The notes below the pieces were generated by a model that did not search any database, was not told where the DNA came from, and saw nothing but the letters and a program-made list of their open reading frames with translations. From a virus: a stretch of 23,440 nucleotides of DNA. Below are positions 2,963 to 22,230 of the stretch, in pieces. Position numbers and translations under genes: made by a program. The stretch lies in UHGV virus genome UHGV-0099579, one strand, 5' to 3'. Every line of letters begins with the position of its first letter. Position 1 is the first letter of the stretch.

Positions 2963-3310
2963 TTAACTCAGTGAAACAGTGGTTGAAACTGACGCACCGG
3001 TATCGGTACGCATCCCGGTAATATCGACATACATCTCGCCAGCGTCGCCGGCCTCAAAGCTGATGGATGTAAGCCTGATGCGCGGTTCCCACTTCTGGAT
3101 AGCCGAATAGCACGCCACCATAATTTGCAGCCTGAGCGCCGGGTTTTGCGGCATATCAATCAGCGCCGACAGAAGCGAGCCATATTCACGACGCATCACC
3201 CGCGAGCCGACCGGCGTCAGCAGAATATCGCGCATGCTCTGGCTGATATGCTCGGTATCGCTGATGCCAAGGCCGGTATTTCGGTTCATCCCCTGATAGC
3301 GCGCCGTCAT
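2963..3310 (-). CDS. Baseplate wedge protein (P2 gpW-like, GPW/gp25 family), 115 aa
   Basis: ORF translation MTARYQGMNRNTGLGISDTEHISQSMRDILLTPVGSRVMRREYGSL... closely resembles P2 gpW; ATG overlaps the V stop. Confidence 0.9.
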   Translation of the reverse strand: MTARYQGMNRNTGLGISDTEHISQSMRDILLTPVGSRVMRREYGSLLSALIDMPQNPALRLQIMVACYSAIQKWEPRIRLTSISFEAGDAGEMYVDITGMRTDTGASVSTTVSLS

Positions 3311-3942
3311 AACGGTGCCCCCGTTTGCCCGCCGCTGTCGCCCGGGTGTTTATGGGTGTGGAGTACCTTGCCATTAGACGACAGTGACCCGCCGGTATGT
3401 TCGATATTGCCGCTCATCTTGCCGCCTTTCTGCACCTCAAGCGTCGCCGTCGTTAGCTTATTGGTGCAAATCACCTCCGGGGTGTCGAGGGTGATACTGG
3501 TCGAGGCTTTCACCAGTACCAGCGGTACGGTTGCGGTGATGGACTCCGATGCCGTCACGTCGGCCGTTTTTATGCCGCTGACCGTCAGCGCGCCGGTTTC
3601 GGGCTCGTACTCAATGACCGCACCATCAGGGAAAGCCACATGCCACGCATCCGCCGAGGCAGACGGGGCGGGGTTATCGTCGGAGAAAATACCCGGCAGC
3701 ACGAAAGCGGTATCAAGCTCGCCACCGATTGCCAGCAGCAGAACCTGCTCACCGACCGAGGGAGCCCACCACGTCCGCGAACGACCGGCGCGGGTGGTCA
3801 GCCAGTTCAGCCATGTAGTCTGGATCCCGCCGCTTTGTACGCGGCACAGCCCCTGCACAGTATCGACCTCAGTCACCACGCCTGAGCGGATGAGGTTGCG
3901 AATGGCACGTGCTAACTCTTGAATGGTGTTTAATGTGTTCAT
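3307..3942 (-). CDS. Baseplate spike/assembly protein (P2 gpV-like), 211 aa
   Basis: Translation from the first ATG (3942) gives MNTLNTIQELARAIRNLIRSG...HTHKHPGDSGGQTGAPL, typical of gpV; the ORF-track start at 3948 is a TTG two codons upstream. Confidence 0.9.
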   Translation of the reverse strand: MNTLNTIQELARAIRNLIRSGVVTEVDTVQGLCRVQSGGIQTTWLNWLTTRAGRSRTWWAPSVGEQVLLLAIGGELDTAFVLPGIFSDDNPAPSASADAWHVAFPDGAVIEYEPETGALTVSGIKTADVTASESITATVPLVLVKASTSITLDTPEVICTNKLTTATLEVQKGGKMSGNIEHTGGSLSSNGKVLHTHKHPGDSGGQTGAPL

Positions 3943-3988
3943 GAACAAAGAATGCCGATTGTTAAAGCCAAGAGCAAAACGATTCAGC

Positions 3989-4006: not shown

Positions 4007-4079
4007 ATTCGGTGTGCATTCATGTATCATTTGAGTGTTGACTCATTCGAAAATCACACAAAACATATGGCAGGTAGTA

Positions 4080-4916
4080 ATGAAAAGAACTTCATCTTTT
4101 AGGCGTACAATAAGCAATATGAAATATATTATAGGTATCTTTTTTTTATACTCCGGGCTTATAGTAGGGTTGTCTGTTTATAATGATAACTACAACTCAA
4201 AATTCATGGAGAATTTTCTTGTTAATGCAAATTCTTCAATTTTAGACTTTCTTGTTTTGGGTGTGATTCTTTACTATTTTGAAAATAAAAGGCAAAATAA
4301 AGATGCTATTCACGAACTAATTGAAGATCTTGAAAATCTGGCAAAGCATTCTTCTGCAGAACTGAATATTATGAAGATAAAAATCATACGTCAGTTAAAT
4401 GCTAAAGGAATATATAACATTCAAGTTCCAAGGATTGAACTTGATAAAATGTCCACTATCAAATATTTACATTTTAAAGACGCTGACTTAAACGGCTTGA
4501 ATATGAGCGAATCATACATTAGAGATTGTTCTTTCGATAATTGCACAATTCAAGCTCTAAATATTACAGGCAATAGAGTTAAGAGTGTTAAATTCAAAAA
4601 CTGCAAGCTAAGAAATATTAAGGCATTTAATACATGTTTTCAAAATGTCACTTTCGAAAACTGCAGTTTTGAAGGGGGGTATTTTACAGATAGCGAAATG
4701 AAAAGCTGCATATTAAAAGGATGTGATTTTAAATCCGTTACTTATGAAGGGGCTAACATGCGGAATGCAAATCTATTAAATTCAATTAACATTAGCGTTA
4801 AAGAACTTGTTAAAGCAAAAAACATAGATTATTTAATTTGTGATGAGCAAATTAAAAATGAAATAAGAAAGGAAAACCCAGCAATAAAAATATCGAGAGG
4901 AATAATACGAGGTTAG
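4080..4916 (+). CDS. Membrane-anchored pentapeptide-repeat protein, 278 aa; compositionally foreign cargo gene (moron)
   Basis: AT-rich ORF on the opposite strand to the flanking late genes; start ATG at 4080 preceded by AGGTAG (the ORF-track start at 4035 is GTG); basic N-terminus MKRTSSFRR then two hydrophobic segments (IIGIFFLYSGLIVGLSVY, ILDFLVLGVILYYF); C-terminal half shows 5-residue periodicity (RDCSF DNCTI QALNI ... KNCKL ... FNTCF QNVTF ENCSF ... KGCDF) typical of pentapeptide-repeat beta-helices. Confidence 0.75.
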   Translation: MKRTSSFRRTISNMKYIIGIFFLYSGLIVGLSVYNDNYNSKFMENFLVNANSSILDFLVLGVILYYFENKRQNKDAIHELIEDLENLAKHSSAELNIMKIKIIRQLNAKGIYNIQVPRIELDKMSTIKYLHFKDADLNGLNMSESYIRDCSFDNCTIQALNITGNRVKSVKFKNCKLRNIKAFNTCFQNVTFENCSFEGGYFTDSEMKSCILKGCDFKSVTYEGANMRNANLLNSINISVKELVKAKNIDYLICDEQIKNEIRKENPAIKISRGIIRG

Positions 4917-5006: not shown

Positions 5007-5462
5007 TCAATGGCGTTGACATAAAGCATCCATAATTAAACTCTCAACTTTTTGTAAGTCTGATGAAGAGTATCCGAGCAACGGTCGCGCCTCGTACTGC
5101 ACATCCCGGCTGTTGCGGTTTGGCCGGTCTTTTAGGCCGTACTGATGCACCCGCGCCATGCGCTGCACCTTGCCGGTAAACTCCACCACCGCCGCACTGT
5201 CGCTGCCTTTGGCTTTCATAAAGCGACTGGTGCGCAGTTTGGCGAACATTTCACGTTTAATCCGACCTTTCTTGCTCCTCACCGGCTGGCGCTTTCGTGC
5301 CGCATACGGGGTGCCGTCTGGTGTCTGCTGGCGCTTGATACGCTGTTGCTGACTGGTACGCAGCTTTTTCGCAATCTCAGCCGCCATTTGCCGACGCGCC
5401 GCCGGTGACAGGCTGGCAATCAGACCGGCAAGGCGTTCCTGCAGTGCGGTTAACTCACTCAT
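5007..5462 (-). CDS. Tail completion / virion morphogenesis protein (P2 gpS-like), 151 aa
   Basis: ORF translation MSELTALQERLAGLIASLSPAARRQMAAEIAKKLR...; overlaps the 3' end of the R-like gene. Confidence 0.9.
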   Translation of the reverse strand: MSELTALQERLAGLIASLSPAARRQMAAEIAKKLRTSQQQRIKRQQTPDGTPYAARKRQPVRSKKGRIKREMFAKLRTSRFMKAKGSDSAAVVEFTGKVQRMARVHQYGLKDRPNRNSRDVQYEARPLLGYSSSDLQKVESLIMDALCQRH

Positions 5463-10947: not shown

Positions 10948-12717
10948 ATGACCATTTCCACCGATACAACCTTGTTGCATGACCCGCGACGGCAGGCATC
11001 GCTGCTTTACTGGCAGGGCTTTTCCGTGCCACAGATTGCCGAAATGCTGCAGGTCAAGCGCCCGACCGTGCAGAGCTGGAAGCAGCGCGACGGCTGGGAC
11101 GGCATCGCGCCGATTTCCCGCGTTGAAAGCAGCCTTGAGGCTAGGCTGATTCAGCTCATCGCCAAGCCGCAAAAGACAGGGGGGGATTTCAAAGAGATTG
11201 ACCTGCTCGGACGGCAGATTGAACGGTTGGCGCGAGTCAACCGCTACAGCCAGACCGGCAACGAAGCCGACCTTAACCCCAACGTTGCCAACCGCAACAA
11301 AGGGGAGCGCAAAAAGCCGAAAAAGAATTTTTTCAGCGACGAGGCTATCGATAAACTAGAGGAATTATTTTTCGACCAGTCTTTCGAGTACCAGTTGCAG
11401 TGGTACCGCGCAGGACTGGAGCACCGTATTCGTGACATTCTCAAATCCCGCCAGATTGGCGCGACATTCTATTTCTCCCGCGAGGCACTGCTGCGCGCAC
11501 TCAAAACCGGCCATAACCAGATATTTTTATCAGCCAGTAAAACGCAGGCTTACGTGTTCCGCGAATACATCATCCAGTTTGCGCGACTGGTCGACGTTGA
11601 CCTGACTGGCGACCCGATTGTCATCGGTAACAACGGCGCAAAACTGATTTTTCTCGGTACCAATTCCAACACCGCGCAGAGCCATAACGGCGATCTGTAT
11701 GTCGATGAAATATTCTGGATCCCGAATTTTCAGAAACTGCGCAAAGTCGCCTCGGGCATGGCCTCGCAAAAGCACCTGCGCTCGACCTATTTTTCGACAC
11801 CTTCCACGCTGGCGCACGGCGCTTACCCCTTCTGGTCTGGCGAGCTGTTCAACAAGGGGCGCAGCCGGATTGCCGACCGCATCGAAATCGACATCAGTCA
11901 CAGCGCGCTCGCCACTGGCCAGCTCTGCGACGATGGCCAGTGGCGGCAGATTGTCACCATTGAGGACGCCCTTGCGGGTGGCTGCACCCTGTTCGACCTC
12001 GACCAGCTCAAACGCGAAAACAGTGATGAGGACTTTAAGAACCTGTTTATGTGCGAGTTTGTCGACGATAAAGCGTCGGTATTCCCGTTCGAGGAGCTGC
12101 AGCGCTGCATGGTCGATGTGATGGAGAAATGGGAGGACTTTGCCCCGTTCGCCGACCATCCGTTCGGCTCTCGTCCTGTCTGGATTGGCTACGACCCGTC
12201 ACACACCGGCGACAGTGCCGGGTGCGTCGTGCTCGCGCCGCCGGTGGTCTCTGGTGGCAAGTTCCGCATGCTGGAGCGCCACCAGTGGAAGGGCATGGAT
12301 TTTGCAGCACAGGCAGAGGGCATCCGCAAGCTGACCGAGAAATACAACGTCGAATACATCGGCATTGACGCAACCGGCCTCGGTCTCGGCGTGTTCCAGC
12401 TGGTGCGCTCATTTTACCCGGCGGCACGCGGCATCCGTTACACACCTGAAATGAAAACCGCAATGGTACTCAAGGCGAAAGACACCATTCGCCGTGGCTG
12501 TCTGGAGTACGACGCCGGAGCAACCGACGTCACGCAGTCGTTTATGTCCATCCGCAAAACTATGACCAGCAGCGGGCGCAGCGCCACCTATGAGGCCAGC
12601 CGCACCGAGGAAGCCAGCCACGCCGATATCGCATGGGCGACCATGCACGCCCTGTTAAACGAACCGCTTTCTGCTGGTAGCGGCATGCAGCCTAAATCTA
12701 TTCTGGAGTTCAACTAA
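10948..12717 (+). CDS. Terminase large (ATPase) subunit (P2 gpP-like), 589 aa
   Basis: ORF translation; GAGG RBS 8 nt upstream of the ATG; divergent arrangement with O as in P2/186. Confidence 0.95.
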   Translation: MTISTDTTLLHDPRRQASLLYWQGFSVPQIAEMLQVKRPTVQSWKQRDGWDGIAPISRVESSLEARLIQLIAKPQKTGGDFKEIDLLGRQIERLARVNRYSQTGNEADLNPNVANRNKGERKKPKKNFFSDEAIDKLEELFFDQSFEYQLQWYRAGLEHRIRDILKSRQIGATFYFSREALLRALKTGHNQIFLSASKTQAYVFREYIIQFARLVDVDLTGDPIVIGNNGAKLIFLGTNSNTAQSHNGDLYVDEIFWIPNFQKLRKVASGMASQKHLRSTYFSTPSTLAHGAYPFWSGELFNKGRSRIADRIEIDISHSALATGQLCDDGQWRQIVTIEDALAGGCTLFDLDQLKRENSDEDFKNLFMCEFVDDKASVFPFEELQRCMVDVMEKWEDFAPFADHPFGSRPVWIGYDPSHTGDSAGCVVLAPPVVSGGKFRMLERHQWKGMDFAAQAEGIRKLTEKYNVEYIGIDATGLGLGVFQLVRSFYPAARGIRYTPEMKTAMVLKAKDTIRRGCLEYDAGATDVTQSFMSIRKTMTSSGRSATYEASRTEEASHADIAWATMHALLNEPLSAGSGMQPKSILEFN

Positions 12718-12718
12718 A

Positions 12719-13765
12719 ATGGGTAAACAAAAATCCCGTAAAGCCAACGCACAAAAGGCCAGCAAACCACAACAACTGACCGCCAGTGCACCGCCAAAAA
12801 CGACAGCGTTCACCTTCGGCGAGCCGGTGCCGGTACTCGATAAGCGCGACATTCTGGATTACGTCGAGTGCATCAGTAACGGCAAATGGTACGAGCCGCC
12901 GGTCAGCTTCTCAGGGCTGGCAAAGAGCCTGCGCTCTGCCGTGCATCACAGCTCGCCAATTTATGTTAAGCGTAACGTGCTCGCGAGCACCTACATTCCG
13001 CACCCGTTGTTATCCCGTCAGGATTTCAGCCGCTTTGCGCTCGATTATCTGGTGTTCGGTAACGCCTTTCTTGAGCAGCGCCACAGCGTCACCGGCCAGT
13101 TAATCAAACTGCTGGCCTCGCCAGCCAAATACACCCGACGCGGAGTCGACGATTCGATTTTCTGGTTTGTGGAAAACTTCACCCAGCCGCACGAGTTCGC
13201 GCCTGATACCGTGTTTCACCTGCTGGAGCCCGACATTAATCAGGAGATTTACGGTCTGCCGGAATATCTCAGCGCGCTTAATTCCGCTTGGCTGAATGAA
13301 TCCGCGACGCTGTTCCGCCGCAAGTATTATCAGAACGGCGCGCACGCAGGCTACATCATGTATGTGACTGACCCGGCGCAAAGTGCGACCGACGTCGAAT
13401 CGCTGCGCGAGGCGATGCGTAACTCGAAGGGACTCGGCAACTTTAAGAACCTGTTTTTCTACGCCCCCGGCGGAAAACCGGACGGCATCAAAATCGTGCC
13501 ACTGAGCGAGGTCGCCACAAAGGATGACTTTTTCAACATTAAGAAAGCCAGCGCCGCCGACCTGATGGACGCGCACCGCGTGCCGTTCCAGCTCATGGGC
13601 GGCAAGCCCGAGAATATCGGTTCACTCGGTGACGTTGAGAAGGTGGCAAAGGTCTTTGTCCGCAACGAGCTGTCACCCCTGCAGGACAGGTTCAGGGAGG
13701 TAAACGACTGGCTCGGCATGGAGGTCATCAGGTTCAAAGAGTACACCCTCGACAACCCGGAATAA
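12719..13765 (+). CDS. Portal (capsid portal vertex) protein (P2 gpQ-like), 348 aa
   Basis: ORF translation MGKQKSRKANAQKASKPQQLT...; start 1 nt after the P stop. Confidence 0.95.
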   Translation: MGKQKSRKANAQKASKPQQLTASAPPKTTAFTFGEPVPVLDKRDILDYVECISNGKWYEPPVSFSGLAKSLRSAVHHSSPIYVKRNVLASTYIPHPLLSRQDFSRFALDYLVFGNAFLEQRHSVTGQLIKLLASPAKYTRRGVDDSIFWFVENFTQPHEFAPDTVFHLLEPDINQEIYGLPEYLSALNSAWLNESATLFRRKYYQNGAHAGYIMYVTDPAQSATDVESLREAMRNSKGLGNFKNLFFYAPGGKPDGIKIVPLSEVATKDDFFNIKKASAADLMDAHRVPFQLMGGKPENIGSLGDVEKVAKVFVRNELSPLQDRFREVNDWLGMEVIRFKEYTLDNPE

Positions 13766-13773
13766 CCCCCTCA

Positions 13774-13796
13774 AGCCGCCATAATGGCGGCTTTTA
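13774..13796 (+). terminator. Rho-independent terminator after the portal gene
   Basis: GC-rich hairpin agccgcc-ataat-ggcggct followed by TTT, 9 bp after the Q stop codon. Confidence 0.5.
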
Positions 13797-13812
13797 CATA
13801 CAAAACTTAAAC

Positions 13813-15030
13813 TTAGGCTTTGCTATTTATCATTCTGATATAACTAGGCATGCGAGGATCTGAAATTTTATATACCCCTCTGGCAGCCTTTGTAAGGATC
13901 GCTCCTTTATCAGCCCTAGTAAAACGCCCAATATAGTTACTCATGTGATAGTTACTCAATGAAATTCCCGTATCTTCTCGAATTTGGGTAATCCATTCTT
14001 GAATGGTAAATTTATTATCTTTGAATTTTGCTGCTGCATAAAGTATTGATGGATAAATATCAGTTCTGGATGAAGTAACTGCGTTCTCATAGTCTCTTTT
14101 AAGTTGTCCCTCGGTGTTTATTACAGCTCGCTTCAAAGCTTCAGGAAGAATGTCGGAATTTACTTCGCTTTTACCAGATGATAAAGCTATATCTGCAGAT
14201 TCCTTTCCTATAAGATGTGTAAAATATGGAAAACCATTGCTAATTTCAACTATAGAGTTTTTAACTTCACGACTAAATGTTATACCCAAGCCATGCTCGC
14301 CAGTCTCAATTATTTCATGTAAATATTTATCTTCAATTCGAGAGAGTTGAATTTCATGGAGGCATCTGTTCACAGAAGGATGACCTGCTATCAACGAAGC
14401 ACCGTCACTGGAAATGCCAACTAACAAAATCTTCAAAGGACTATTGGAATCACTAAGTTGTTTAACAAACTCAGCGACATCATGCTTAACTTCATCACTG
14501 ACAACATCAAATTCATCTATTAAAAGTATTGCATTCAATTCTTCAAGCGCAAAACAGGCTTTACTTGGAGTAAGGTCTTCTTTTTCTATCGTGATTTTCT
14601 CTTCGGCAGAAACGTCCGCTCTAAATAATTTCAAAACATTAAGCCCAATACCTGCTTTTTTGGTAGTCTCTCTTTTATTTGCGGCATATTCACTATCAAT
14701 AAATATAGCTGGCCTTGCAATTATATCTTTGAATTTTGTTTTTTTATCACATCGCACTACAAAAATGTTACTAGGTAACACACCTTCATTTTTCCCTCCC
14801 TCTAAAGTTGATAAGGCGAGCGAGCTTTTCCCAATCCCTCTCTCTCCATAAATCATGCAATGCTTACCATCAGTAGTTAAGGTGTCGAGGATATGTTCCA
14901 CCTCGTTATCACGCCCTTTCAAATGGGTAGGTGCCTCAATAGGTTTAGACGGTGTAAAATATAAATCAACATTTTTAATTTTATTTTTTTTGGCTTTAAA
15001 ATTACTGAATATACTGCTGGTAGTTGTCAT
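13813..15030 (-). CDS. AAA+ P-loop ATPase (ORC/Cdc6-like or STAND-like fold suspected) with winged-helix-like C-terminal region, 405 aa; AT-rich cargo gene between portal and cos
   Basis: Walker A GERGIGKSSL and Walker B LLIDEFD are visible, preceded by the ...LKGRDNEVEHILDTL... helix typical of AAA_16/ORC-like NTPases; first ATG at 15030 (the ORF-track start at 15048 is TTG); by eye much more AT-rich than the flanking phage genes; flanked by terminators on both sides. Confidence 0.8.
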   Translation of the reverse strand: MTTTSSIFSNFKAKKNKIKNVDLYFTPSKPIEAPTHLKGRDNEVEHILDTLTTDGKHCMIYGERGIGKSSLALSTLEGGKNEGVLPSNIFVVRCDKKTKFKDIIARPAIFIDSEYAANKRETTKKAGIGLNVLKLFRADVSAEEKITIEKEDLTPSKACFALEELNAILLIDEFDVVSDEVKHDVAEFVKQLSDSNSPLKILLVGISSDGASLIAGHPSVNRCLHEIQLSRIEDKYLHEIIETGEHGLGITFSREVKNSIVEISNGFPYFTHLIGKESADIALSSGKSEVNSDILPEALKRAVINTEGQLKRDYENAVTSSRTDIYPSILYAAAKFKDNKFTIQEWITQIREDTGISLSNYHMSNYIGRFTRADKGAILTKAARGVYKISDPRMPSYIRMINSKA

Positions 15031-15150
15031 TTCCGCATCCCATTGCAAAAAGTTAACTCATTAAAAGAAAAATTTAGAGTAAGTGCAACACCTATTTTCG
15101 GAGCTTGTCACAAGATTTACTACTGAAGTGTAACCGCTTTGGCGCGCAAT

Positions 15151-15169
15151 GCTTTCCCCGCCACGCCTG
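15151..15169. other. cos site (19-nt cohesive-end sequence of P2/186-type phages)
   Basis: Plus strand atgctttccccgccacgcc is the reverse complement of GGCGTGGCGGGGAAAGCAT, which matches my recollection of the phage 186 cohesive end (P2 differs at two positions); located between the portal gene and the replication region as expected. Confidence 0.7.
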
Positions 15170-15327: not shown

Positions 15328-15360
15328 AAAAAAACCGGCATTCAGGGTGCCGGTTTTAGT
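15328..15360. terminator. Bidirectional rho-independent terminator
   Basis: Perfect 10-bp stem aaaaccggca / tgccggtttt with 7-nt loop, flanked by an A-run on one side and a T-run on the other; ends the minus-strand SOS operon and insulates the ATPase gene. Confidence 0.6.
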
Positions 15361-16759: not shown

Positions 16760-18982
16760 TTACTCATGTATTGGTTTTGATGCTTCAGCCATCGCCGCAA
16801 CACGATTAAGGATTTTCCGAGCTTTAGCCTCATGCGATGGTGCTGCGGAAAATATTTCTCCTTTGGCCGTTCCGCGTAGCCATTTACCATCAAAACAACT
16901 TTTACCACCGGCCATCAGGTGCAGGGCTTCGCCCCGGCTGATATTAATGCCGGTTGTCAGATGTATCTCATCGATAGTTTTAGCTATAGCTGCGTTTTGC
17001 TCATCCGTTCCGTGGATGAATTTTCGCCGTACTGCTGGCTTTTGCTTCCTGAGTCGGTTGGTCAATTCTCGTCTTTCACGCCGACTCAGTGGTTTTGTTA
17101 AATCCAGTATCGGTGGATCGCTTTCGCTTCCCGTACAGTTATTGACAGAACTCCGAGGGACGGCTTTGCCGTCCTGAAGGTCAACGGCCAAATCAACAGC
17201 ACGCTTCGGAACAATCTTCCACTGAGTGAGCCGGGTTAAAATCGGGCTTCCTGCACCTATGGAGGAATCGTAGACCCCCTTAATACATACCGTTTCCTCA
17301 CCGTACTGATTAAGCTCGGTACGCGGTTCATACAGTGTGCGCACCTGTAAATCATCGCGACGGACAAACGGCCCACCCTGAGCATTAACATAACCAGCCC
17401 AGTCACCAGCGTCGGCGGCATCATGGACGGCGGCAAACTCAACGCTCAGACCGTGCGCGGTTTCGGTATCAGCGAGGCGACGCAACTCACGGTAAACCGT
17501 CACCGGCGCACCACCAATAAACTGAAACTGACGGATGTGCCAGCGCGCAGCCCATGCTGAAACGGCGGGGGCTGTCTCTTTCAGCAGCTCACCGCTTTCA
17601 TCATCGGTTTCACCATCGAGAGCATAACCGTCGATATTTTTTGAAATGTATTTAGCAACATAGCCGGTTGCGCTGCCTTTCTCCGGGTCAATGGACTCGG
17701 CGTGGAAACGTGCTTTTTTGGATTTATCGCTTTTCAGTTCGTGGCGGTCTTCTTTCCATGCGTATTTACGGACGATGGAGCGAACATATTCAACATCTTC
17801 CGGCAGCATGAACATCAGCATGTGCCAGTGTGGAGTGCCGTCGTGATGGGGCTCGGCGACACGAATACCGAAAATACGGACATCTTCCCGATGTAGTTTG
17901 GCACGGATACGCGCCCAGATACCGGTTAGATAGTTTTGCGTGTCAGCCGGGCTGGCACCGCTCCATTTGCTGTTACGGTAACCGGCTTTAGTCGTGGCGT
18001 GATATTTTGACGGCGCGGTTAGAGTGTAAAACTCACCGACATAACCGAGCTCATTACAGATGTTTTCAAACCCACGAATGCGGGTCATGAGCTCACAGCG
18101 GCGAATCGCAGGGTTAGCAACTGAGCCATCATATTTTTCAATTAGGCTGATACGGTTGCCGTCTTCGTCTTCGAGATCCAGACCTTTGAGAAATTCACGA
18201 GTGCGGCGCTTTTGTTCACGCCAGTCAGTCACGCAGTTTTTACTCGCGTAAGTGTTTTTTTTCTTACTGACGTTGCCGACTGCAATTTGCAGGTGTTCGC
18301 GCCACGTAGCTGCAACACGGCGCAAACGACCGCGCCACCACCCATCGTTAAACATTTTGGCGATAGCCGGTGCGATTTCATCCGCACCGACATATTTTTT
18401 TTCAACCCGCTCCCAATGTGGTGGGATAACGTTGAATTGGAGGGAAATAAAGCCAGCACGAATATACCAGGTGTACAGCGTTTTAAGCTCGCCGAATCCG
18501 TGGTCATTAATGTTGGCAAGTTCACCACGAATGAAATTAGCAATATCAGCGGCCAACAGGTCAACATCAGCGCGCGACATGTCCGGGAGACGGTTATATT
18601 GGGCGACCATATTAACCATGCGTGATGACAGATATTGCATTTGCTGAGTATCAAAATGACTTCCAAAAACAGCGGTTGATACCTTGCTGTTGATACCAGC
18701 GCATTCGTATTTTTTTGCGACCAGTTCAAGACGCGGCAATGCCTTTTTGCAGAAGCTGATTAAAAATGCATTGGCTCGTTGACTACCCTGATTTTGCTCC
18801 AGCACCGCAGCAGTGCGATAAACATCTAACCGCACGCAGTCGGGCTGGAGAGAAAGCACCTTTTTTGCATGCAGCAAAGCCGCGAACATACGGTCGCGGC
18901 GATGCTGTTGCTCATAAGTAAGGTATGGGCTGGAGATTGCCGACCGTGGGACGTTCCACGGATAAGCGAATTGAACAGCCAA
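16760..18982 (-). CDS. Replication initiation protein (P2 gpA-like rolling-circle nickase), 740 aa
   Basis: ORF translation with HHDGTPHWHMLMF and GYVAKYISKNIDGYAL motifs typical of gpA; the ORF-track start codon is TTG with a GGGGGG RBS, and there is no in-frame ATG upstream. Confidence 0.95.
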   Translation of the reverse strand: MAVQFAYPWNVPRSAISSPYLTYEQQHRRDRMFAALLHAKKVLSLQPDCVRLDVYRTAAVLEQNQGSQRANAFLISFCKKALPRLELVAKKYECAGINSKVSTAVFGSHFDTQQMQYLSSRMVNMVAQYNRLPDMSRADVDLLAADIANFIRGELANINDHGFGELKTLYTWYIRAGFISLQFNVIPPHWERVEKKYVGADEIAPAIAKMFNDGWWRGRLRRVAATWREHLQIAVGNVSKKKNTYASKNCVTDWREQKRRTREFLKGLDLEDEDGNRISLIEKYDGSVANPAIRRCELMTRIRGFENICNELGYVGEFYTLTAPSKYHATTKAGYRNSKWSGASPADTQNYLTGIWARIRAKLHREDVRIFGIRVAEPHHDGTPHWHMLMFMLPEDVEYVRSIVRKYAWKEDRHELKSDKSKKARFHAESIDPEKGSATGYVAKYISKNIDGYALDGETDDESGELLKETAPAVSAWAARWHIRQFQFIGGAPVTVYRELRRLADTETAHGLSVEFAAVHDAADAGDWAGYVNAQGGPFVRRDDLQVRTLYEPRTELNQYGEETVCIKGVYDSSIGAGSPILTRLTQWKIVPKRAVDLAVDLQDGKAVPRSSVNNCTGSESDPPILDLTKPLSRRERRELTNRLRKQKPAVRRKFIHGTDEQNAAIAKTIDEIHLTTGINISRGEALHLMAGGKSCFDGKWLRGTAKGEIFSAAPSHEAKARKILNRVAAMAEASKPIHE

Positions 18983-21891: not shown

Positions 21892-22230
21892 ATGAAAAAG
21901 TTTATATTTGCGATAGTCTGCATTGCACTTTCTTCCTCAGCCATAGCCGCTGAGAAGTTTAAAGAGATAGACGGCGCTGCATATGGTGACAAGTGGCCTC
22001 TAACCTTTGAAAAGGCAAAGGTATCATGTGTTAACCGTGCTTATGCTTTTGTGTATGACATCAAAACTGATGATAGATATCCTCTGAATGGCATGGCGGT
22101 AGATGCTGTTAAATCAGGAAAGCTGGAGGGGTCTAACTTAGATGACGTATGGAAGGATGACCCTGAGTATGACGGCGTTAAAATTTCAATTTCACCGGTG
22201 ATTGATGCCGCTACAGCCCTTTGTAATTAA
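21892..22230 (+). CDS. Small secreted/periplasmic protein with signal peptide, 112 aa; cargo gene in the lysogenic cI-int operon
   Basis: GGAG RBS; N-terminal signal peptide MKKFIFAIVCIALSSSAIA followed by AEKF; two Cys in the mature part; lies between cI and int where 186/P2 have no gene. Confidence 0.7.
   Translation: MKKFIFAIVCIALSSSAIAAEKFKEIDGAAYGDKWPLTFEKAKVSCVNRAYAFVYDIKTDDRYPLNGMAVDAVKSGKLEGSNLDDVWKDDPEYDGVKISISPVIDAATALCN

Follow-up and report, generated by a model that had tools for sequence, protein, structure and literature searches.

The interval between the replication gene A and the portal gene Q of P2-like prophages, which lies beside cos, is a described hotspot of anti-phage defence (gpA-gpQ), in which 1,650 arrangements were recorded among 18,150 Escherichia coli loci and where old, tin and several new systems have been validated (Rousset et al. 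2022). Four of the 21 systems recovered in a functional screen also reside in this interval (Vassallo et al. 2022), and a 2026 study of the equivalent P4 hotspot found six of eight randomly chosen unknown loci to be protective, one of these being a single-gene ATPase system. The window discussed here, a 23,440-nucleotide stretch of viral DNA (UHGV virus genome UHGV-0099579), contains in its own gpA-gpQ interval a gene at positions 13813-15030 on the minus strand, whose 405-residue product (WP_130553851.1) is a minimal AAA+ ATPase of Orc1/Cdc6-like or nSTAND1-like type that includes a lid and a winged-helix domain. The original prediction, made from the sequence alone, had proposed this gene as a candidate single-gene defence; what it observed is confirmed here, and what it proposed is supported in part. 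Its nature as single-gene foreign accessory cargo in the defence hotspot is established by the analysis below and is best explained by a horizontally acquired 'moron' module at the cos-proximal gpA-gpQ hotspot of a 186-like prophage. Defence, in the sense of shielding the lysogen, and with it the prophage, from other phages or from mobile DNA, is its most likely role, and is given about an even chance here.

The window is a 186/PSP3-like prophage bearing CI, CII, Fil, the DinI/Tum region and the replication endonuclease A, and in strain VG888-46E9 this prophage is integrated beside yfiB. The terminase gene P (10948-12717) and portal gene Q (12719-13765) lie on one side of the ATPase gene and gene A, encoding the A-protein of rolling-circle replication (16760-18982), lies on the other, such that the cassette is found between A and Q and beside cos, as in the published definition of the hotspot (Rousset et al. 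2022). The open reading frame (ORF) spans 405 residues from its ATG start, or 411 residues in a TTG-extended form that reaches to 15048, and PGAP made the same 405-residue call in two E. coli chromosomes whose sequence over the stretch is 100% identical, in agreement with the opposite-strand ORF that had been placed between the portal stop codon and cos. The AT-richness first remarked upon is pronounced: the G+C content (GC) is 0.35-0.36 over positions 13800-15000 compared to approximately 0.56 in the flanking P and Q genes, and at third codon positions (GC3) it is 0.27 in the ORF versus 0.715 in P and 0.716 in Q.

The boundaries of the insertion are sharp. In blastn comparisons with gene-less relatives (loci L002-L005), homology ends at 13795-13801 and restarts at 15133, with 125-131 bp between these points in the empty loci, and the insertion suspected between Q and cos is thereby confirmed. 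Because homology with the gene-less relatives breaks at both edges, positions 13796-15132 are recognized as a single-gene cassette of approximately 1.33 kb, comprised of the ORF and a 102-bp leader, which stands in place of the approximately 125-131 non-coding bp of empty 186-like prophages and leaves no room for a second gene. Phage 186 itself has 144 bp of non-coding DNA and no gene between cos and tW, a result that covers 186 alone of the two phages, P2 and 186, for which a short non-coding stretch had been claimed. The left edge of the variable slot is formed by the intrinsic terminator of the portal (Q/W) transcript on the plus strand (13775-13795; GCCGCC-ATAAT-GGCGGC, then TTTT), a hairpin of sequence GCCGCCATAATGGCGGC followed by TTTT whose homologue in phage 186 is annotated as the tW terminator. 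Near the right edge lies the 19-nt cohesive-end sequence of the 186-type cos, ATGCTTTCCCCGCCACGCC, which, once reverse-complemented, matches the cos annotated in NC_001317 (positions 1-19) exactly; it had been correctly identified at the outset, but its coordinates were 2 nt off and are 15149-15167. The cassette junction at 15133 is only 16 bp from this 19-mer, which implies that terminase needs only a very short sequence on the portal side of cos. Beyond cos, the A-DinI operon, which lies upstream on the minus strand, is shut off from the cassette and cos by a bidirectional intrinsic terminator at 15328-15357, whose 12-bp stem is accompanied by T-runs on each of the two strands. The two terminators that were thought to bracket the gene are therefore both present.

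Within the leader, a Shine-Dalgarno-like GGGA stands 7 nt (TGCGGAA) ahead of the ATG start (15028-15041, minus strand), and both the start and the spacing are kept in orthologues, with AAGGA in an Enterobacter locus (L090) and AAAAGGAAT in three others (L099, L100 and L102). A candidate promoter of the gene's own, TTGCAC-17 nt-TTTAAT (15060-15088, minus strand), matches the sigma-70 consensus at 8 of 12 positions and is conserved, together with the Shine-Dalgarno element, in the Salmonella (L009) and Enterobacter (L090) orthologues. Upstream regions are otherwise clade-specific, and no promoter common to the gene in all of its contexts was found. A search for iterons, repeat arrays and transposon ends in or beside the cassette returned repeats at chance level only.

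Occupancy of the slot between Q and cos varies among close relatives, which hold a DUF2188 gene (L002 4105-4416), a gene on the plus strand for a hypothetical protein of 334 residues (L003 4144-5148), a 66-residue ORF (L005 3086-3286), or nothing. This variability, along with the published gpA-gpQ definition, bears out the proposed location in a variable defence hotspot of P2-like prophages. The ATPase gene itself is present in four of 5,426 complete E. coli genomes, each time adjoining the portal gene, while its flanks are matched in 122, and most related prophages therefore lack it; none of the P2/186-like phages of the sequenced-phage collection carries it. A 30-kb circular Salmonella 'plasmid' that bears the gene at 95.8% identity and in the same position is actually a 186-like genome. 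On the P2 map, both old and tin are placed between cos and A, whereas the cassette described here lies on the Q side, a refinement of its initial description as 'old/tin-equivalent', which applies to the gpA-gpQ interval as a whole.

In its published description, nSTAND1 is the NTPase at the centre of multidomain conflict proteins, in which it is accompanied by N-terminal effector or adaptor domains and by super-structure-forming repeats (Kaur, Burroughs, Iyer and Aravind 2021). The window protein matches the Pfam nSTAND1 model (PF20703) at 35.5 bits (E = 1.2e-8), over the gathering cutoff of 27.1; PF20703 matches are precomputed on most of its homologues, and PGAP names it an 'nSTAND1 domain-containing NTPase'. 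The match is limited to model positions 18-217 of 379 (residues 39-262), which correspond to the ATPase core. Although this cutoff is passed and some relatives are linked to NB-ARC/TPR proteins, the window protein is a bare core of approximately 400 residues and not a multidomain protein. Weaker Pfam matches are to AAA_22, AAA_16, ATPase_2, ORC-CDC6-like, NB-ARC and NACHT. The layout of the STAND NTPases (Leipe et al. 2004) is present, with an NTPase core, a helical lid bearing a GxP motif (the invariant GFP at residues 266-268) and a winged helix, but this layout does not separate STAND from Orc1/Cdc6 proteins because the latter share it. The protein was not found to be closer to NB-ARC, NACHT and MalT than to the AAA+ initiators and clamp loaders, and, as modelled, its fold stands closer to that of the initiator clade than to that of STAND proteins.

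The fold of Orc1/Cdc6 proteins, an AAA+ base with a lid and a C-terminal winged helix, is likewise displayed by the window protein, but its scores fall short of family membership, with 12.4 bits against a cutoff of 181.3 for TIGR02928 (orc1/cdc6), 16.2 against 27 for PF24389 (ORC-CDC6-like) and 21.2 against 33.2 for PF01637 (ATPase_2). The archaeal ATPase_2 proteins (2qen, PABY2304; 2fna, SSO1545) and Orc1/Cdc6 proteins (1fnn, 2qby and 1w5s) are only 14-17% identical to it, and a profile search of the PDB gave nothing below E = 1e-3. In contrast to the archaeal Orc1/Cdc6 proteins, it is bacterial and phage-borne, bears invariant motifs of its own (GHPSVxRC, GFPYFTHL and DPRM) and is encoded without origin or MCM context; an association with a replication origin was not found, as no iterons occur in or beside the cassette and the phage has its own A gene.

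Searches of PADLOC, Pfam, PHROGs and NCBIfam, the last with DS-8 and DS-41, two models of the DefensePredictor paper of 2026, among its entries, returned no validated defence family, only matches at the level of the P-loop or to families without assigned function, among them a firm placement in the function-unknown family phrog_6841. The best PADLOC match is to the candidate PDC-S59 (29.8 bits, E = 7.7e-8, residues 47-266 only), with mad8 at E = 9e-4; among distant family members, PDC-S59 is matched by 38 of 84 and mad8 by 61 of 84, with best E-values of 6e-14 and 1e-8, respectively. At 428 positions, the PDC-S59 profile is about as long as the window protein, but this system is itself just a candidate, and a literature search found no paper mentioning it. 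The mad8 protein is a component of the eight-gene MADS operon, whereas the window gene stands alone, and both matches are far below family level. Among the validated systems of the gpA-gpQ hotspot, old, tin and other cargo share with the window gene its location and its format of a short, variable and prophage-borne cassette, but none has homology to its product. The OLD protein combines an ABC-type ATPase with a TOPRIM nuclease domain; no TOPRIM, nuclease or ABC/AAA_15/AAA_21 match was found for the window protein in Pfam or PADLOC, and its fold is AAA+. The Avs/AVAST, NACHT and NB-ARC-TPR proteins share a P-loop oligomerization module, a winged helix and the hotspot location with the window protein, which differs from these in lacking both an N-terminal effector and C-terminal sensor repeats. 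The Avs arrangement of effector, STAND NTPase and sensor is thus not seen, no significant PADLOC Avs match was obtained, and one of the 84 distant members matches Avs1b (E = 2e-4). The target selectors TnsC and MuB are distinguished from the window protein by its additional C-terminal winged helix and by the lack of transposase or partner genes nearby; sequence similarity to TnsC is negligible, with one of the 84 distant members matching the PADLOC TnsC model at 6e-4. The single-gene 'AAA_22' entry of the P4 hotspot (AAA_22/NB-ARC in the tables of Rousset et al. 2022) was considered and set aside as a different, longer KAP/NLR-like protein.

The locus and its protein are already listed in Table S5A of Rousset et al. 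(2022) as an unannotated 'hypothetical', and no sign of curation or testing of WP_130553851 was found. No functional test of the family was found in the literature searched on nSTAND1, PDC-S59, Cdc6-like anti-phage proteins, Kevin1 gp30 and DefensePredictor. The original prediction of an undescribed gene accordingly calls for a qualification, since the protein appears in that table, has a PGAP name and belongs to phrog_6841.

An alignment of 50 homologues with 33-90% identity (alignment A1) reveals approximately 46 invariant columns and a set of family-specific invariant motifs, namely FTPxxPI, GRxxE, GHPSVxRC, GFPYFTHL and GxYxxxDPRM. The Walker A (GERGIGKSSLA, residues 62-72; 14815-14847, minus strand, as for all of the motifs that follow) and Walker B (ILLIDEFD, residues 168-175; 14506-14529) motifs, which had been read directly from the translation, are invariant across these homologues, including Asp172, Glu173 and Asp175 of the latter, and the ATPase is predicted to be catalytically intact. 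The conserved N-terminal FTPxxPI (residues 25-31; 14938-14958) is situated ahead of GRxxE, with Thr26, Pro27, Pro30, Gly39, Arg40 and Glu43 invariant, and is taken here to resemble the N-terminal lead-in to the ATPase of Cdc6/Orc1. Between β2/α2 and β3, a variable insertion of approximately 43 residues (14569-14697) is predicted to be disordered, with a predicted local distance difference test score (pLDDT) below 50 for residues 119-149, and differs in both length and sequence among the homologues; it presumably occupies the site of the initiator-specific motif in AAA+ proteins of the initiator clade. The GHPSVNRC motif (residues 216-223; 14362-14385) is of the box VII or 'SRC'-like type, with His217, Ser219, Arg222 and Cys223 invariant. 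The equivalent of Arg222 is also invariant in the set of distant homologues (A5), and by analogy with the motif pattern of clamp-loader and initiator AAA+ proteins this residue is a candidate trans-acting arginine finger. The GxP-type lid motif SNGFPYFTHL (residues 264-273; 14212-14241) lies in the sensor-2 region. At the C-terminus, the winged helix (residues 337-405; 13816-14022) has a net charge of +6 and is composed of helices at residues 343-354 and 360-371 and strands at 379-383 and 386-389, ending in the invariant GxYxxxDPRM (Gly385, Tyr387 and Asp391 to Met394). The N-terminal tail is also basic (+5), and conserved Cys and His residues are found at Cys94, Cys223, His57, His217 and His272.

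The AlphaFold2 model built on the 50-homologue alignment (pLDDT 86.5; predicted template modelling score, pTM, 0.81) displays an ATPase domain, interrupted by a disordered insertion of approximately 30-40 residues, followed by a lid of helices, a short linker that is also helical and the winged helix, and no additional domain was found in either the Pfam search or the model. Structural matches include CED-4 and the NB-ARC modules of plant NLR proteins. Pfam, PADLOC and this model uphold the initial reading of the product, in which an ORC/Cdc6- or STAND-like ATPase ends in a winged helix and lacks an effector.

The family to which the protein belongs is rare and uniform. When 1.84 billion cluster representatives were searched with a profile, 1,416 clusters scored at E ≤ 1e-30 and, at the looser threshold of E ≤ 1e-10, 3,283; stand-alone proteins of 390-440 residues make up nearly all of the members. 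The relatives are scattered over many bacterial phyla and also reach a few archaea; a pattern search recovered them, at the stringency applied, from only 217 of approximately 186,000 species genomes, a patchy spread typical of horizontally moving genes. Compared to the Salmonella orthologue, the ratio of nonsynonymous to synonymous substitution rates (dN/dS) is 0.06 at a dS of 0.40, indicating strong purifying selection, and the clade of the Enterobacterales and Aeromonas maintains a GC of 35-38% whatever the host. In P2/186-like prophages of E. coli, Salmonella, Enterobacter, Pectobacterium, Citrobacter and Lonsdalea, the slot between Q and cos holds orthologues of 51-96% identity that run convergent to the portal gene. 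Two of the Citrobacter-type P2-like prophages with a homologue bear further candidate defence genes beside the CI repressor, encoding a SNIPE/T5orf172 protein in one (L100 1-609) and an OLD-like AAA_15/TOPRIM protein in the other (L101 1-433).

Other temperate phages carry the family in accessory slots of their own. A 60% identical homologue is found in Klebsiella lambdoid prophages between the antiterminator Q and the holin, a classic moron slot of such phages (L095-L098 8001-9224). A strong terminator stands ahead of this homologue, and approximately 780 bp without a called gene separate it from the holin. Relatives of approximately 26% identity are encoded in the central variable regions of the Gordonia phage Cashline and of the Cluster N mycobacteriophage Kevin1, in the latter between the lysis genes and the integrase/repressor (gp30); the genome announcement of Kevin1 flagged gp30 only as an orpham AAA-ATPase of possible immunity interest. 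IMG/VR holds 103 relatives, the neighbours of which fall mainly into three groups, namely portal and terminase genes, antiterminator, DUF1133, DUF968 and holin genes, and integrases, with single cases of AbiH, Zeta toxin and DUF4238, the last a validated defence of the P2 hotspot. A homologue of the type encoded by plasmid pMT1 is present in approximately 60 Yersinia pestis plasmid records.

A link to NLR-like proteins is found in actinobacteria. Three Pseudonocardiales loci have, immediately upstream of the family member and on its strand, a gene for an NB-ARC/TPR protein of 877-912 residues (L034 7251-9881, L036 7197-9887 and L042 7140-9875), and a fourth locus (L041) has an ORF of 863 residues, its domains unscanned, in that upstream position. 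In the protein P0123 (1,191 residues; L185 595-4170), NB-ARC, DUF7779 and TPR regions are fused continuously to a complete family module at the C-terminus. To judge by these arrangements, the actinobacterial clade appears tied to NLR-like sensors, a link that is clade-specific and, as regards the fusion, anecdotal. It hints that the family module can act downstream of a sensor, and an NB-ARC/TPR gene together with a family member could constitute a two-component NLR-like system in actinobacteria.

Defence is the best-supported inference because several lines of evidence converge upon it: the prior set by the hotspot, the recurrence of the family in accessory slots of unrelated temperate phages, the combination of foreign composition with strong constraint, a fold class with wide use in immunity and the link to NLR-like genes. 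A number of observations nevertheless weigh against a defensive role. The gpA-gpQ hotspot carries cargo other than defence, including partition systems in approximately 25% of P2-like phages and a cytolethal distending toxin (Rousset et al. 2022). The lack of an effector domain renders any killing or blocking activity hypothetical, and a fold of initiator type would be just as suited to replication, maintenance or regulation. In the leader, a consensus promoter scan called nothing, the 8 of 12 match of the candidate falling below its threshold. The P0123 fusion is a single ORF on one 6-kb metagenomic contig. The chromosomal copies of Aeromonas and Pectobacterium are lone insertions in ordinary surroundings, and the 28% identical homologue of Y. 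pestis CO92, an AAA family ATPase of 463 residues, is encoded on pMT1 directly after parA-parB (L006 6947-8338). Finally, among 148 ORFs within three genes to either side of chromosomal homologues at approximately 31 loci, counted on crude ORF calls and with no background rate, a handful match defence genes (AbiLi/RloB, DrmD, SspH, PD-Lambda-2_B and methyltransferases), and these are set amid housekeeping genes, so the signal is weak.

The protein might instead serve the mobile element that carries it, by aiding its replication, its partition or its maintenance in a plasmid state, or as a switch-type regulator of transcription or lysogeny, roles for which the Orc1/Cdc6 homologues of some archaeal viruses offer a comparison. 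We consider such a role unlikely, albeit a serious contender. Its fold is that of replication initiators and loaders, the homologue on pMT1 is the next gene after parA-parB, one viral contig has ParB and ParA neighbours, and partition systems occupy about a quarter of P2-like hotspots; a paper on a haloarchaeal virus also mentions Cdc6 in relation to control of the lysogeny-induction switch. The gene is dispensable, however, being present in four of the 5,426 E. coli genomes when 122 have the flanking prophage, and the 186-like hosts that do carry it are mostly integrated prophages. No iterons or repeats occur in or around the cassette, nor is there a conserved partner gene: an all-against-all clustering of 475 neighbours from 75 loci gave no cluster present in more than six loci. 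The diversity of the slots, which include the late region of lambdoid prophages and lone chromosomal islets without replication or partition context, also argues against this role. A defensive protein might, alternatively, work purely as a sensor or switch that oligomerizes on a phage protein in the manner of STAND and NLR proteins and relies on an effector encoded elsewhere, such as a host nuclease or protease or, as in actinobacteria, a neighbouring NLR-like gene, or that forms a toxic ATP-consuming oligomer. The Pfam nSTAND1 score over the gathering cutoff, the GxP-type lid motif, the NB-ARC/TPR fusion and adjacency, and the presence of CED-4 and plant NLR NB-ARC modules among the structural matches are all consistent with this mode of action, which is assigned a similarly low probability.

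Action during lytic growth, as a counter-defence or anti-satellite factor that, for example, guards cos or packaging from P4-like satellites or counters a host defence, is very improbable. The cassette does lie 16 bp from cos, the sole region common to P2-like phage and P4 satellites, and the position downstream of the late antiterminator gene in lambdoid prophages makes late expression possible there. Against this, homologues are also found in chromosomal islets, plasmids and actinophages that lack a cos of P2/P4 type, and in the window the terminators insulate the gene from both early and late operons. To our knowledge, anti-defence proteins are small, and the size and ATPase architecture seen here would be atypical of these. 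A decaying or functionless hitchhiker ORF, as the rarity of the gene in E. coli and its extreme AT-richness might suggest, is scarcely credible: the dN/dS of 0.06, catalytic motifs that are all intact, approximately 1,400 clusters of uniform length and a confident structure model contradict it, and these data on selection and conservation effectively refute it.

For the preferred role in defence of the lysogen, we infer expression in the lysogen, DNA binding, oligomerization and the nature of the target. The protein would be made in the lysogen from its own weak candidate promoter, and would be triggered by foreign DNA, by a DNA-protein structure or by a phage protein. Once triggered, it may bind ATP and oligomerize via the trans-acting Arg222, in a manner similar to initiator-clade AAA+ proteins, and may contact DNA with its winged helix and with the insertion located where the initiator-specific motif would be. 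Initiation of replication or packaging of the invader would thereby be blocked, or the host arrested in an abortive infection, and no nuclease would be needed for either outcome. A bolder form of this proposal holds that an effector-less, phage-borne mimic of Orc1/Cdc6 founds a new class of immunity, in which ATP-dependent assembly, either on foreign DNA as it enters or on an intermediate of phage replication or packaging, physically blocks initiation or packaging without degrading the invader; such a protein would serve in some lineages as the executing module downstream of an NB-ARC/TPR sensor, and the family, being spread over P2-like, lambdoid and actinobacterial phages, would represent a widespread and overlooked form of defence. 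This bolder form is regarded as improbable, yet is set out here for what it would mean.

Outside the Q-cos slot, the prophage carries further genes of note. A second AT-rich cargo gene on the plus strand (4035-4916; GC approximately 0.30 versus approximately 0.58 around it) lies between the baseplate gene V (3307-3948) and the virion-morphogenesis gene (5007-5462), on the strand opposite to these. Its product of approximately 280-290 residues, called a 'pentapeptide repeat-containing protein' by PGAP, has N-terminal hydrophobic segments and pentapeptide repeats; pentapeptide and transmembrane proteins occur in P4-hotspot systems of the published tables. A DUF2511 gene lies between the CI repressor and the integrase on the plus strand (approximately 21892-22230, coordinates inferred from the annotation of L001), has a GC of approximately 0.41-0.44 and may be another lysogenically expressed accessory gene.

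If lysogens are indeed protected by the ATPase, the gene would represent a new single-gene prophage defence belonging to a family of approximately 1,400 clusters, distributed over many phyla and at least four unrelated lineages of temperate phage. It would follow that viruses can be halted by an initiator-type AAA+ ATPase whose only addition is a winged helix, and that no nuclease, NADase, pore or other recognizable effector is required for this. The abundant and obscure stand-alone prokaryotic proteins annotated as 'archaeal ATPase' or Orc1-like would become tied to immunity. The actinobacterial fusion provides a handle on how NLR-like sensors might be coupled to such a module. Should the gene prove not to be defensive, the cassette would still present a clean example of cargo exchange at a slot 16 bp from cos in the 186-like phages.

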